Origin: Bdellovibrionota bacterium FG-1
GTDB taxonomy: Bacteria; Bdellovibrionota; UBA1018
Length of the DNA: 64,000 nucleotides
Direction of reading: 5' to 3'
Assembly (NCBI GenBank): GCA_051382295.1
Contig: JBBCAW010000021.1
Span: 83,085-147,084, forward strand
Shown here: positions 917 through 7,090 of the stretch, one piece after another
Layout: each line of letters opens with the position of its first letter
Position numbering within the stretch: position 1 is the first letter of the stretch
Program-made: the position numbers and the translations under genes
Notes under the pieces: model-generated
Database searches by the model: none
What the model saw: the letters and a program-made list of their open reading frames with translations, nothing else
Told to the model about the DNA's origin: nothing

Positions 917-1843
917 GGGTTGGCCATGTTGAAGTAAAAGCTTCATGACTTCTAGGTCTTGATCAATACGATCTCTGGGGTCAAAGCCTAAGAGACGGGC
1001 GACCAGGTATCCCAGCGCTCCAGCGGGCGGCGCATAAGAAAGCTCGATATGGAGCCGGGTGCCCCCCGTTTCAATTGATTCAAATTGAACGCTTCCTTCG
1101 GTTGCGATCAAAGAACCAGGGATACTTTTCCAGGCGATCCTTTGGTTGGGTATCAGGTCAAAAACACTCGTTTCCCAGTGGACTTGCGCCCCACCGGGCG
1201 CTTTGGCCGCCCACCTTAATACGCCAGAATCATTGATTTGGACGTCTCGAATAAAGGACATAAAGCGCGGATAGTTTTTGAATTGGCTCCAGAAGCTGTA
1301 GGCTTCCTCCACGTTCGTTGAGACTGAAAGAGTTCTTTTCATCTGAATGACTGGAAGAATCAAGCTTCCGATGACCTGAGTGATGTCTCGATTGGTCATT
1401 GCGCGAGAAAGCAGGAGGCCGCCGATCCCTAGGGAAAGCAAACTCCCTAAGCCGGCCTTCTTTTCCTTCGTTCGGAAGCCTTGGATCATAATCATGACCC
1501 CCGACAGCCCTGCTAAAGCACGAAGCCAGGGGGCCCAACGACCGGCAATAAACCCGGGTTGGTAGCCGAAGCGGTTTTCTGGCAGATGTCCTGATGACGG
1601 TTTGTCAGAAGAGGAGTTCATGACTTCCAAATGATGGATGACGGGCGTGACCCCTACAAGCTTCTTAGCTATTTCTAGGATCGAGTGAACCTCATCGTCA
1701 AAAACTGAGCCCGCTAAAAAAACCTGGCCATCGTAAACGCTCGCTTCGATGAGTCCGGGGTGAGTCAAAATCTGATCGAGTTTGGCACGTAATTCCGCAG
1801 TTTTCTGTGAATCAGTGGAAGGAGGAGGAGTGGGCCGTGACAT
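818..1843 (-). CDS. BON domain + SRPBCC (START-like) family protein
   Basis: N-terminal BON-like (IEASVYDGQVFLAGSV...GVTPVIHHLEV), two hydrophobic segments, then YSFWSQFKNYPRFM...IAWKS...LSYAPPAG. Confidence 0.8.
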   Translation of the reverse strand: MSRPTPPPSTDSQKTAELRAKLDQILTHPGLIEASVYDGQVFLAGSVFDDEVHSILEIAKKLVGVTPVIHHLEVMNSSSDKPSSGHLPENRFGYQPGFIAGRWAPWLRALAGLSGVMIMIQGFRTKEKKAGLGSLLSLGIGGLLLSRAMTNRDITQVIGSLILPVIQMKRTLSVSTNVEEAYSFWSQFKNYPRFMSFIRDVQINDSGVLRWAAKAPGGAQVHWETSVFDLIPNQRIAWKSIPGSLIATEGSVQFESIETGGTRLHIELSYAPPAGALGYLVARLLGFDPRDRIDQDLEVMKLLLQHGQPSARSPKMTADFQPTPRSGALSNQQNRPSRMAQ

Positions 1844-2200: not shown

Positions 2201-4903
2201 TTATTTTCCCAACTGTTGGCGAAGAACGTAAGGGAGAATTCCCCCATGACGGAAATACTCAACTTCGTTCGGGGTGTCGATGCGCGAACGGGTCGTAAAT
2301 TCGTGGGTTTTTCCAGAGCTGTCCGTCGCTTTGACTTTTACATCCGCACCGGGAGTCACCTGGCCCAATCCCAAGATTTCATAAGTTTCTTCGCCGGTCA
2401 GGCCGAGTGTTTTAGCGCTTTCGCCGTCTTTGAATTGAAGAGGAAGAATACCCATTCCGACGAGGTTTGAGCGATGAATTCGTTCAAAACTTTCGGCAAT
2501 GACGGCTCGAATGCCTTGGAGCTTAGGACCTTTTGCCGCCCAATCGCGGGATGATCCTGTACCGTATTCTTTGCCCGCAATGACAATGGTGGGGATTTTA
2601 TCAGCCATATATTGCATGGCTGCATCGAAAATGGACATCTGCTTACCTTCGGGCAAGTGACGAGTCACGCCACCCTCAACCCCCGGAACAAGGAGGTTTT
2701 TGAGGCGCACATTGGCAAAGGTTCCTCGCACCATGACTTCGTGGTTTCCCCGGCGAGCGCCATAGGAGTTAAAGTCTTTGGGGGCAACACCTTTGGCGAC
2801 CAAGTATTGGCCAGCGGGGCTCTCCTTTTTGAACGAACCTGCCGGAGAGATGTGATCGGTCGTTACTGAGTCACCTAATAAAGCCAGGACGCGGGCTGCA
2901 TGAATGTCGGTGACGGGTACCGGAGTGGCGGTGATTCCGTCAAAGAAAGGCGGCTGTTTGATGTAGGTGGATGAAGTGTCCCACTTGTAAAGGTCGCCTG
3001 TAGGAACCTGAATGTCTTGCCATTGCTGCTCACCGCGGAAAACATCGGCGTAGCTCTTGGCAAACTGTTGGGAGGTCACGAACCGACCTACATAGTCAGC
3101 CACTTGCTCGTTAGTTGGCCAAATGTCCTTGAGGTATACGGCTGTTCCATTGACGTCTTTACCGAGCGGCTCATGGGTGAGATCAATTCGCATGGTACCT
3201 GCGATGGCGTAAGCCACGACCAAGGGGGGTGAGGCCAAGTAATTGGAGCGAACGTTCGGATGGATTCGTCCTTCAAAATTCCGGTTACCAGAAAGGACGG
3301 CCGCTACGGCGAGGTCGCCCTTAACCACCGCATCCTGAATGTGATCGGGCAGAGGGCCTGCGTTTCCGATACAAGTGGTGCAGCCGTAGCCCACGACATG
3401 AAACTTGAGGGCTTCCAAAGAGCTTAAAAGGCCGGCCTCTTTGAGGTAGTCTGTCACCACTTTAGATCCCGGAGCCAAGGAACTCTTCACCCAAGGCTTG
3501 ATGTTGAGTCCCTTTGAAACTGCATTTTTGGCTAAAAGTCCTGCAGCAATTAAGACACTCGGGTTGGAGGTATTGGTGCAGCTTGTGATTGCGGTGATGA
3601 CTACGGCACCCTGTTCGAGACAATAGTTTTGCCCCGAAGGAGCTTTGACTTCAACTGAAGTCATCTTTTGTTTTTCAAACTCTGCCCCTTGAAGTTGAGG
3701 ATAATAAGAGGGCAATGCTTTCTCGAAAGATTCGCGGGCTTGAGCGAGAGCGACCCTGTCTTGCGGGCGAGCGGGACCTGCTAAGGCAGGCTCTACCTTC
3801 CCCAAATCCAGTTCAAGGGTGTCCGTGTAGGTAGGGTCGGCTTGTGAGCCATCGTACCAGAGTCCTTGCTCTTTAAAATAGGCTTCGACGACGGCCACGC
3901 GGTCGCCGCGTCCGGTGAGTTTCATATAGTCCATCGTCTTAGTGTCTACCGGGAAAATGCCGCAGGTTGCGCCGTATTCGGGAGCCATATTGGCAATCGT
4001 GGCGCGGTCTGCAAGGGTGAGACTGGCTAGGCCTGGTCCATAAAACTCGACAAACTTGCCGACCACGCCTTTTTTGCGAAGCATTTGAGTGACCATGAGC
4101 ACGAGGTCGGTTGCGGTGGTGCCAGCGGCCGGTTTGCCGATGAGCTTGAATCCGACGACTTGTGGAATGAGCATCGTGCAAGGCTGGCCTAGAAGTGCGG
4201 CTTCGGCTTCGATTCCGCCGACTCCCCAGCCCAGGCATCCCAGGCCGTTGATCATGGTGGTATGAGAGTCCGTGCCCACCATGGTGTCGGGGTAAAGCCA
4301 GTTTTCGCCGCCAATCTGGCGCTCCATCGCAACGTGCGAAAGAAATTCGAGATTCACTTGGTGCACGATGCCGGTGTCCGGAGGAACTACGCGAAAATTT
4401 TTGAAGGCGGTTTGGCCCCAGCGCAAAAATTCGTAACGCTCTTTATTGCGTTCAAATTCAAGGTCGGCGTTGTCCTTCAATGCCGAAGAACTTCCGAAAT
4501 GATCGACCTGGACAGAGTGGTCGATCACAAGATCGGCCGGCTGAAGAGGATTAATCCGGTCGGGGTTGCCGCCCAGACGCTGAACAGCGGCGCGCATAGC
4601 CGCAAGGTCCGCGACACAGGGTACGCCGGTAAAATCTTGCATCAAAACCCGCGCCGGCATGAATTGAATTTCAGTGTCAGGTTCGGCTTTGGCCTTCCAG
4701 TTCGCGAGCGCTTCGATGTCCTTCTTTTTAACGGCGACGTTGTCTTCTTGCCGGAGGAGGTTTTCGAGTAAAATTTTCAGCGAGAAGGGGAGCTTACCGA
4801 GGGGAATCTGTTTTCCAAACTCCTTGAGTGAGTGGAAGCGGTAGGCTTTTCCGGCTACGTTTAAAGTTGAAAGTGTTTTGAAGCTGTTGATATTGTGCGT
4901 CAT
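2201..4903 (-). CDS. acnA: Aconitate hydratase A
   Basis: RVLMQDFTGVP, DLVIDHSVQVD, GTDSHTTM, AITSCTNTSNP, GYGCTTCIGN, SGNRNFEGR, GTGSSRDWAAKG; start moved to ATG 4903 after GGGGAG. Confidence 0.98.
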   Translation of the reverse strand: MTHNINSFKTLSTLNVAGKAYRFHSLKEFGKQIPLGKLPFSLKILLENLLRQEDNVAVKKKDIEALANWKAKAEPDTEIQFMPARVLMQDFTGVPCVADLAAMRAAVQRLGGNPDRINPLQPADLVIDHSVQVDHFGSSSALKDNADLEFERNKERYEFLRWGQTAFKNFRVVPPDTGIVHQVNLEFLSHVAMERQIGGENWLYPDTMVGTDSHTTMINGLGCLGWGVGGIEAEAALLGQPCTMLIPQVVGFKLIGKPAAGTTATDLVLMVTQMLRKKGVVGKFVEFYGPGLASLTLADRATIANMAPEYGATCGIFPVDTKTMDYMKLTGRGDRVAVVEAYFKEQGLWYDGSQADPTYTDTLELDLGKVEPALAGPARPQDRVALAQARESFEKALPSYYPQLQGAEFEKQKMTSVEVKAPSGQNYCLEQGAVVITAITSCTNTSNPSVLIAAGLLAKNAVSKGLNIKPWVKSSLAPGSKVVTDYLKEAGLLSSLEALKFHVVGYGCTTCIGNAGPLPDHIQDAVVKGDLAVAAVLSGNRNFEGRIHPNVRSNYLASPPLVVAYAIAGTMRIDLTHEPLGKDVNGTAVYLKDIWPTNEQVADYVGRFVTSQQFAKSYADVFRGEQQWQDIQVPTGDLYKWDTSSTYIKQPPFFDGITATPVPVTDIHAARVLALLGDSVTTDHISPAGSFKKESPAGQYLVAKGVAPKDFNSYGARRGNHEVMVRGTFANVRLKNLLVPGVEGGVTRHLPEGKQMSIFDAAMQYMADKIPTIVIAGKEYGTGSSRDWAAKGPKLQGIRAVIAESFERIHRSNLVGMGILPLQFKDGESAKTLGLTGEETYEILGLGQVTPGADVKVKATDSSGKTHEFTTRSRIDTPNEVEYFRHGGILPYVLRQQLGK

Positions 4904-4960
4904 ATAGTGAGAGTCTCCCCACTCACTCTTTCGCACAAAAGATGAGCAGACGTCCAGTCA

Positions 4961-5129
4961 GGAATTCCCGGCGAGGATGTCGGGGTCGGCCTTCCCCCTT
5001 TGCAGCACTTCCTGTGCTGCAAGTGCCCTTTTGGGCACTCGGGCTTCTCGAACAATCCTGTTCTCGAAGGGCCTCCGCGCGAAAAGCGCTTCCTGCGCGC
5101 GCGGATCCCCTCATCTCGCCGGGAATTCC
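4961..5129 (-). ncRNA. Structured multi-branch RNA (leader or sRNA) with three AGGA hairpin loops
   Basis: 15-bp perfect closing stem 4961-4975/5115-5129 enclosing four hairpins; three minus-strand loops read AGGAA, AGGAUU, AGGAA. Confidence 0.6.
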
Positions 5130-5253
5130 CTATGTGGGTCCGGAACAAAAAAGCCACAAAGTTAGAAGCCGATGCCGGCGCCGCCGCTGAGCGTAAATTA
5201 GGTATCACGAAGGCGACCGTTGGCGAGCGGCCCGAAGTCCTACCCCGATTCTG

Positions 5254-6550: not shown

Positions 6551-7090
6551 AAGATCCCCGGACGTAAGTCCGGGGGTGTATAAGGCTCCCAGGTCTTCTT
6601 TTCGTGGTAGAAGCTCGGTTCATGAGACTACGGAGACAAGCCCACTGCGTATACCGCACGATGTATCACATTGTATGGATACCGAGATATCGATACGCAG
6701 TGCTAAACAAGGGTGTAGCAGCGTACTTGTTGATAAAGTTGGATGAAGTTAGAAAATATCATCCTGAAATTGAATATATTGAGCGGAATGTCCAGCCCGA
6801 CCACGTTCATATCGTTGTAAGTTTCCCGCCCAAATATAGCATCTCGCGCGTCGTGCAGCTAATGAAGCAAAACACAGGCCGCGAGCTGCGAGCAAAATTT
6901 GAGTTCATACGCAAACGTTATTACGGGCGAGGGGGGATGTGGTCGGCTGGGTATTTCGCGTCGACCGTGGGCTTGGACGAGGAGATGATAAAGCGGTACG
7001 TGAAGTATCAGCAAAAAGAAGACCTGGGACAAGCGGAGCTTGCATTGCCCCCTGGTTCCCGAGTGCCACGGACGTAAGTCCGTGGATATC
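6551..7090 (+). mobile_element. IS200-type element (tnpA only); ends approximate
   Basis: Near-identical subterminal hairpins CCCCGGAC-GTAA-GTCCGGGG (6556-6575) and CCACGGAC-GTAA-GTCCGTGG (7066-7085) flank tnpA; no tnpB. Confidence 0.85.
6622..7077 (+). CDS. tnpA: IS200/IS605 family Y1 HUH transposase
   Basis: YHIVWIPRYR, PDHVH (HUH), WSAGYFASTVG, YVKYQ. Confidence 0.95.
   Translation: MRLRRQAHCVYRTMYHIVWIPRYRYAVLNKGVAAYLLIKLDEVRKYHPEIEYIERNVQPDHVHIVVSFPPKYSISRVVQLMKQNTGRELRAKFEFIRKRYYGRGGMWSAGYFASTVGLDEEMIKRYVKYQQKEDLGQAELALPPGSRVPRT

Follow-up and report, generated by a model that had tools for sequence, protein, structure and literature searches.

The folded unit upstream of acnA in the window (the whole 64,000-nucleotide stretch of Bdellovibrionota bacterium FG-1 DNA analysed here) is a copy of a dispersed repeat, family A, which works like the TwoAYGGAY RNA motif but fails formal membership by its loop consensus and its model score. 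The explanation that we favour, with better than even confidence, is that a non-autonomous, dispersed element of TwoAYGGAY-like type has undergone an expansion specific to this lineage, taken together with the steps of spread, copying and CsrA binding proposed below. What the initial annotation had described as a single acnA-linked RNA belongs to a repeat family that has 37 dispersed loci and the TwoAYGGAY architecture, in substance a known kind of repeat. Its CsrA-like loops, the selection acting on the GGA strand and the presence of CsrA and FliW were borne out, whereas the single sponge or leader tied to acnA was not.

Structure and setting of the copy upstream of acnA

The features of this copy are collected in Table 1, together with examples of other repeats in the same genome. 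The outer arms pair perfectly over 15 bp, as read from the sequence, and this closing stem and the four hairpins named in the initial annotation are all present on the minus (acnA-sense) strand. The core has 134 nt, as against 61-64 nt in short copies, and GGA occurs in three loops and one junction, as against two sites in short copies. The minus strand folds to -101.8 kcal/mol (z -8.9) and the plus strand to -100.3 kcal/mol (z -9.5), none of 200 shuffles folding as well in either case; since both strands fold similarly well, the strand cannot be chosen by folding energy alone.

Table 1. Features of the copy upstream of acnA (window coordinates) and positions of other repeats in the same genome (G000, contig:position)
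Feature	Position	Strand	Remarks
Whole folded unit, a long-form family A TwoAYGGAY-like repeat copy	4961..5129	-	97 bits to the covariance model from 33 short copies
Basal (outer) stem, 5' arm	5115..5129	-	sequence differs among copies; both arms change together
Basal stem, 3' arm	4961..4975	-	ends 58 nt before the acnA ATG (4903)
Conserved core	4979..5112	-	GGGG/CCCC helix (5107-5110 with 4982-4985) closes the hairpins
Hairpin 1	5075..5104	-	bulged stem, AGGAN loop; GCGC-AGGAA-GCGC at 5086-5098
Hairpin 2 frame	4988..5073	-	GGCC 5070-5073 with GGCC 4988-4991
72-nt exchangeable module in the hairpin 2 loop	4998..5069	-	three hairpins: two AGGA loops, one AAAA loop
AGGAA hairpin	5000-5022	-	9 bp
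AAAA hairpin	5023-5038	-	GUGCCC-AAAA-GGGCAC
AGGAUU hairpin	5050-5063	-	GAAC-AGGAUU-GUUC, within a longer stem, 5044-5069
Fourth GGA	4992-4997	-	junction
CCCAC motif 5' of the stem	5134..5138	-	conserved: diversity 0.11 vs 0.55 just upstream; GTGGG on the other strand
acnA, aconitate hydratase	2201..4903	-	neighbour, outside the element; AcnA above NCBIfam cut-off
Back-to-back doublets of family A	G000 C22:62933-63288, C3:107111-107452, C5:113572-113933		spacer ~130 bp, probably structured
Family B copies, among others	G000 C5:6098-6213, C38:58920-59048, C39:27315-27431, C41:1314-1431		
Further repeat families, examples	G000 C3:125036-125100, C21:41283, C21:28476		one copy abuts a family A copy

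An Rfam search, proposed in the initial annotation, placed no family over the element at gathering score, two tRNAs being the sole matches in the window. The models of CsrB and CsrC and those of RsmX, RsmY and RsmZ likewise gave no match to the element at that score; the rsmX score, 17.6 bits (E 0.73), falls short of its cut-off of 56. A promoter-like site, with 9 of 12 positions matching, is found near this copy at 5291-5262, and no terminator-like site is found at it. A small hairpin at window positions 4906-4927 (-), with 6-bp arms, encloses the purine-rich ribosome-binding region before the acnA ATG and could limit acnA translation independently of the repeat.

The initial suggestion of a leader or sponge dedicated to acnA, through which Csr would be coupled to TCA flux, appears very improbable. 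The element does lie on the sense strand 58 nt from the ATG, in the long form with three to four GGA, and the lack of a promoter-like site between it and acnA means that co-transcription in the acnA leader may be possible. One further family A copy precedes the isocitrate dehydrogenase gene, and the gene ahead of another is presumably that of malate dehydrogenase, judging from the N-terminus. However, the element is upstream of acnA in none of 20 relatives (21 carry acnA; the upstream region is available for 20), and most other neighbours of family A copies are unrelated genes. Of the other two full long copies, one adjoins a response regulator and the other follows a convergent gene without a name. 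The proposed link between Csr and TCA flux at acnA is not supported, the family having 37 dispersed loci, 20 of them antisense to the next gene on the 3' side. On the favoured reading, the copy at acnA is a long form inserted there incidentally; it may act locally on that gene in this single lineage.

Across the family, the 3' end of the GGA strand lies a median of 8 nt from a gene and the 5' end a median of 285 nt. The next gene on the 3' side is convergent in 20 of the 37 loci, with its stop codon no more than 20 nt away in 16 of these, and in sense in the other 17, with its start 42-68 nt away in 11. A sigma-70-like site (at least 9 of 12 positions) follows the stem in 4/17 sense copies, 0/20 convergent copies and 3.7% of 1423 control windows. 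These positions and promoter-like sites indicate that several copies stand upstream of the neighbour's promoter and that many are antisense 3' UTR hairpins.

Family A, TwoAYGGAY and CsrA

The sequence of the acnA element has 40 matches in its own genome according to blastn. The locus count rests on a fuzzy search with a 22-nt core; its 40 matches, less two without structure and one contig-overlap repeat, leave 37 distinct loci, none inside a gene called by a simple gene caller. Three loci are long (134-nt core, including the acnA copy), 33 are short and one is truncated. A covariance model built from the 33 short copies found 45 matches in the genome at E up to 1, the additions being four sister-form copies with an AUGGAU first loop and some fragments. 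The short unit comprises two hairpins with A(N)GGA(N) loops; a GGGG/CCCC helix carries them and is itself enclosed by an outer stem of 17-22 bp; hairpin 2, which in the long form is expanded by the 72-nt module, is here a 4-bp covarying stem with its loop.

The 72-nt module has seven matches in the genome, spread across families A and B, and sits in two copies of family B, which is unrelated to family A in sequence but follows the same plan. The three long copies do not cluster in the tree, one being sister to a short copy (99/95, with rough bootstrap values); this scatter and the sharing of the module with family B suggest that the module moves or is lost repeatedly. Family B itself, a repeat with two GGA hairpins and an outer stem that covaries, numbers about 9-11 copies; an upstream hairpin is conserved in five copies and the 72-nt module is present in two. 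Three more intergenic repeat families, with 12-32 copies each, have short palindromes and lack a fixed GGA loop. Family A also occurs as divergent doublets at three loci, with a conserved spacer of about 130 bp; these doublets could represent the element at full length. In 5/34 copies there are short tandem repeats on the 5' side, and in none on the 3' side, compared with 7/600 random intergenic windows (Fisher p 0.0002).

GGA is present in 32 of 33 hairpin-1 loops and 32 of 33 hairpin-2 loops, and loop diversity is 0.03-0.06 at GGA versus 0.58-0.65 at the following base. The outer arms differ between copies (diversity 0.43). In the MAFFT alignment, 94.5% of cells are paired, as against 40-53% when slid, and double changes are seen at all 15 outer-stem pairs; one hairpin-2 pair is GC in 17 copies and UA in 15, although such counts overstate the number of independent events because the copies are kin. 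The mismatches in 36 outer stems, read on the GGA strand, comprise 23 G-U and 3 A-C, or 15 and 3 as distinct events (p 0.008). The stems therefore covary, a point that the initial annotation had left to be checked, and it is on the GGA strand that pairing is selected, as RNA or as single-stranded DNA; since the latter also forms G-T wobble pairs, the strand bias is no proof of RNA. When paired GGA hairpins were sought de novo under strict criteria, too strict for counting copies, nine were recovered, all of them known family A copies, and none for five control loops.

The TwoAYGGAY RNA motif (Rfam RF01731) was listed by Weinberg in 2010 (PMC2864571) and has been proposed to bind CsrA on account of its match to the CsrA site (PMC4333381). 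It is multicopy, with doublets, 5' repeats, a spread of copy numbers and variants with extra hairpins, and the link between its mobility and regulation was left unresolved (10.64898/2026.09.22.753630). Family A has the same two sequential GGA-loop hairpins on a common basal stem, the long and poorly conserved outer stem, intergenic copies by the tens, doublets in divergent orientation, short 5' repeats, variants in which additional GGA hairpins take the place of one hairpin, and a proposed CsrA binding and mobile-like spread. It differs in its loops, which are mostly AGGAN or ANGGAN (exact AYGGAY is found in 1/33 first loops and 1/33 second loops), and in its 5' repeat unit, which varies from copy to copy. 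The hosts differ as well: the available portions of the TwoAYGGAY literature name human-gut sequences, Gammaproteobacteria/Pseudomonadota and Clostridia/Bacillota, while family A belongs to another phylum, and 'Bdellovibrio' does not occur in the main text of 10.64898/2026.09.22.753630. No family A copy in the own genome matches RF01731 at E up to 10. The four sub-threshold matches of that model in the genome (24-27 bits, gathering threshold 43) are all family B copies, and two relatives of the same order pass the threshold of 43 with 49.1 and 43.5 bits.

A GGA triplet within A(N)GGA(N), displayed in a hairpin loop, is an established CsrA site, and the GGA loops that were initially read as CsrA sites fit this pattern, with binding as a prediction. 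Both csrA and fliW, which the initial annotation suggested looking for, are present in the genome, where csrA adjoins fliW and flagellar genes and encodes an intact-looking protein close to solved CsrA proteins. GGA-containing hairpin loops are also named with CsrA in work on B. bacteriovorus, whose CsrA is active and represses a target with a GGA hairpin, its own regulation being little understood (PMC13443453). A GGA flanked by freely varying bases turns up again in families and genomes unrelated in sequence, as would be expected for CsrA. Of 122 predicted loops in 52 related loci, 88 hold GGA, 9 ACGA and 25 another sequence, and the module of family B reads ACGA where that of family A has AGGA; such loops fit CsrA poorly. 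As csrA occurs in 108/116 genomes of the order, its co-occurrence with the element is uninformative. The family A repeat probably binds CsrA where transcribed, the chances being about even.

Similar to CsrB, RsmX, RsmY and RsmZ, family A places GGA in hairpin loops and has CsrA in its host; unlike them, it has a small number of GGA sites, enclosed by a long stem, some 40 copies scattered over the genome, no terminator-like site and a host with FliW-type control. It is a distinctly improbable reading that the copies are independently transcribed, domesticated CsrA sponge sRNA genes, multicopy analogues of RsmX/RsmZ that are no longer mobile. The strongly conserved core with its compensatory changes, the 5' spacing (median 285 nt compared with 8 nt on the 3' side), which leaves room for a promoter, and the placing of TwoAYGGAY and rsmX in one Rfam clan, CL00106, would suit such genes, as would the repression of a GGA-hairpin target by B. 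bacteriovorus CsrA (PMC13443453). Against this stand the mere two GGA loops of most copies, the absence of a conserved promoter in the 5' flanks, the very uneven copy number among kin (any match in at least 20/116 genomes), the swapping of modules and the scars of tandem repeats.

Basal arms in relatives and the question of mobility

An exact 20-22-nt core pattern had one match in GTDB genome contigs, a genuine degenerate copy with the same sequence as a locus of a genome from the same family of organisms (G084), and none in viral contigs, plasmids or phages. Its eight matches in metagenomes lack the structure and are read as chance; a blastn search over 40 relatives gave one weak match, which lies inside a coding region and was rejected. 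The covariance model of family A has matches in at least 20/116 genomes of the order, its own included, and RF01731 in at least 15/116, two of these above cut-off, and in at least 4/151 genomes of a phylum-wide sample, all in this order; these figures are lower bounds, since scoring was confined to the 17-31 best candidates of each genome.

The arms were analysed in 72 related loci from 31 genomes, with two repeat entries of loci already in the set, one apparent duplicate and the loci of the own genome left out. They reach at least 40 bp in 47/72 loci (median 51, maximum 174); 31 of the 72 loci came via RF01731, a source favouring long stems. The arms of family A are short and mostly of two consensus types, with about one evident flank-extended stem by eye (C78:35045). 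The 3' neighbour of the related loci is convergent in 45/63 cases, with its end no more than 30 nt from the arm end or inside the arm in 34, and in 20 loci a convergent gene or tRNA has its end within the 3' arm by 5 nt or more. On the 5' side, where the neighbour is in sense in 39/66, the comparable figures are 18 and 6, the latter being gene ends inside the 5' arm. Seven loci face the 3' end of a tRNA or tmRNA; in four of them that end lies within the 3' arm and a mere fragment of it in the 5' arm. At locus L076 (G022), the 3' arm holds the last 15 codons of a sigma-54 activator, codons that fall within its Fis-type HTH_8 domain (292-331 of 333), and these are copied into the 5' arm. A gene end lies in the 5' arm alone at L133, and Pfam searches with 11 more gene ends were uninformative as to direction, the domains stopping short of the arms.

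The inner 20 bp of the related arms have 12 G-U and 4 A-C mismatches; farther out the figures are 46 and 50, a lack of strand bias that is expected for copied, unselected DNA. The long basal arms most likely arose when template switching copied one arm into the other, for the most part starting from the side of the gene and within bounds set by selection; the direction of copying is proven in about six loci only. Template switching during replication at quasi-palindromes yields reverse-complement copies, perfected or extended stems and multi-base compensatory changes (PMC8794818). Compared with these cases, a single class of element is affected here across an order, the arms extend to 170 bp and it is mostly the side next to a convergent gene that is copied. 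The accounts of TwoAYGGAY, in their available portions, make no mention of basal stems copied from local gene or tRNA ends. The literature covered, apart from figures S25-S29 of 10.64898/2026.09.22.753630, which may bear on both points, holds no report of these elements from Bdellovibrionota and none of flank-copied stems.

Two groups of loci have further peculiarities. At L076 (G022), a short ORF at 1183-1407 (-) now has a chimeric C-terminus, with 15 codons acquired from the convergent activator via arm copying. In genome G047, loci L129, L132, L133 and L134 have arms of 100-174 bp with a conserved asymmetric internal loop between two stems, the sequence of which differs from copy to copy while the pairing is kept.

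The own genome contains two IS200-type and seven RAYT-like Y1 genes and two reverse transcriptase genes, and no family A element is found near any of these nine Y1 and two reverse transcriptase loci. The RAYT-like genes (L029-L035; G000 C33, C1, C41, C61, C98, C130) score 19-20 bits with NF047646, the cut-off of which is 80; they have a conserved upstream motif and no evident flanking REP. A 345-aa reverse transcriptase (L126; G000 C141:167-847) scores below every NCBIfam cut-off. The IS200 Y1 gene tnpA at window positions 6604-7077 (+), 1.5 kb off, was rejected as mobiliser, its ends carrying hairpins of their own and no element motif, and so was a group II intron domain VI or retron, to which the GAGGGG...CCCCGAC ends had pointed, there being no linked domain V or reverse transcriptase. 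Replication-strand bias is absent among 36 copies (17 leading, 19 lagging). When all 208 neighbouring ORFs of the related loci were searched with the Y1 and reverse transcriptase proteins of the own genome, one of 71 loci proved to be near a RAYT-like gene, at a distance of about 650 nt; no recurrent mobile neighbours were seen in a scan of 75 of the 208 ORFs plus some others. At L121 (G005, 240-1631), an element with an outer stem equal to that of the family A consensus is located 185 nt past a TnpB gene, itself preceded by the end of a group II intron.

A REP consists of a GTAG or GTGG foot followed by a short palindrome, and we take the CCCAC/GTGGG motif of family A to resemble such a foot. 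The GTGGG is conserved on the strand opposite to the GGA loops but lies 3' of the big stem, and few copies have a palindrome after it. The element could be a REP/REPIN-like single-stranded DNA hairpin, with its loops and foot as sites of a RAYT-like HUH enzyme and its likeness to CsrA sites incidental, a reading that we hold to be quite unlikely. It draws on the seven RAYT-like genes with their weak NF047646 scores, on the conservation of the motif, on the 16/37 copies directly behind stop codons, on good folding as DNA (z -11), on the ACGA loop variants and on the related locus near a RAYT-like gene. However, none of the nine Y1 loci is flanked and only that one locus of 71 is near such a gene, and the recurrence of GGA with free neighbours in families and genomes unrelated in sequence is what CsrA sites would be expected to show.

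The Pseudomonas repeat R200 may be the TwoAYGGAY element of that genus, judging in part from copy numbers of 47 and 48. Intergenic repeats show a tail-to-tail bias, and R200 of Pseudomonas fluorescens is 320 bp long with 47 copies in SBW25 (PMC2718517). As with REPs, REPINs, BIMEs and MITEs, the elements described here are intergenic palindromes enriched in tail-to-tail positions behind stop codons, with mosaic modules and lineage-specific copy number; in contrast to those, no flanked RAYT or cognate IS was found for them, and the terminal arms of family A are not conserved between copies. Family A thereby fails the definition of a MITE by conserved terminal inverted repeats and target duplication. 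No target duplication was seen by eye at the acnA copy or the family A doublets, and 8-bp duplications are present at merely 3/72 related loci, two in G088 and one in G022, another departure from MITEs. The two in G088 (L103 and L119) have a GGA core inside identical 70-bp arms with differing 8-bp target duplications, and thus form a classical MITE, which suggests that arm copying can create MITEs.

Proposed mechanism and meaning

In the favoured explanation, a TwoAYGGAY-like non-autonomous element, copies would spread by a mobile-element-like process with an enzyme acting in trans. The basal stem would be kept paired by template switching during replication, with copying from arm to arm, and in relatives would be extended into flanking DNA until selection stopped the extension near stop codons. 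Transcription of the GGA strand, whether by read-through or from the 5' region of the element, would yield loops that may bind CsrA dimers, and the copies might then jointly form a diffuse sink for CsrA or bring CsrA to the transcript. If it is the opposite strand that is transcribed, immediately behind a convergent gene, this stem would serve as a 3' UTR hairpin.

A wider and rather unlikely proposal is that TwoAYGGAY-like elements form a distinct mobile class of CsrA-binding RNA, landing head-on at the 3' ends of genes and tRNAs. They would build the basal stem themselves as the target is copied directionally by fold-back, which would give every copy an antisense arm specific to its locus. 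Together these RNAs would be the missing CsrA antagonists of a phylum assumed to depend on FliW, and mobility or maintenance might itself involve the binding of CsrA.

The findings extend TwoAYGGAY-like elements to Bdellovibrionota, with families missed by Rfam, and remove the case for a conserved Csr-TCA link at acnA. Copying of local DNA offers a testable origin for the long, unconserved basal stem; where a stem is copied in this way, its covariation need not mean selection. The approximately 40 natural variants in one genome constitute a ready set for the questions of CsrA binding and spread left open in the available portions of 10.64898/2026.09.22.753630.
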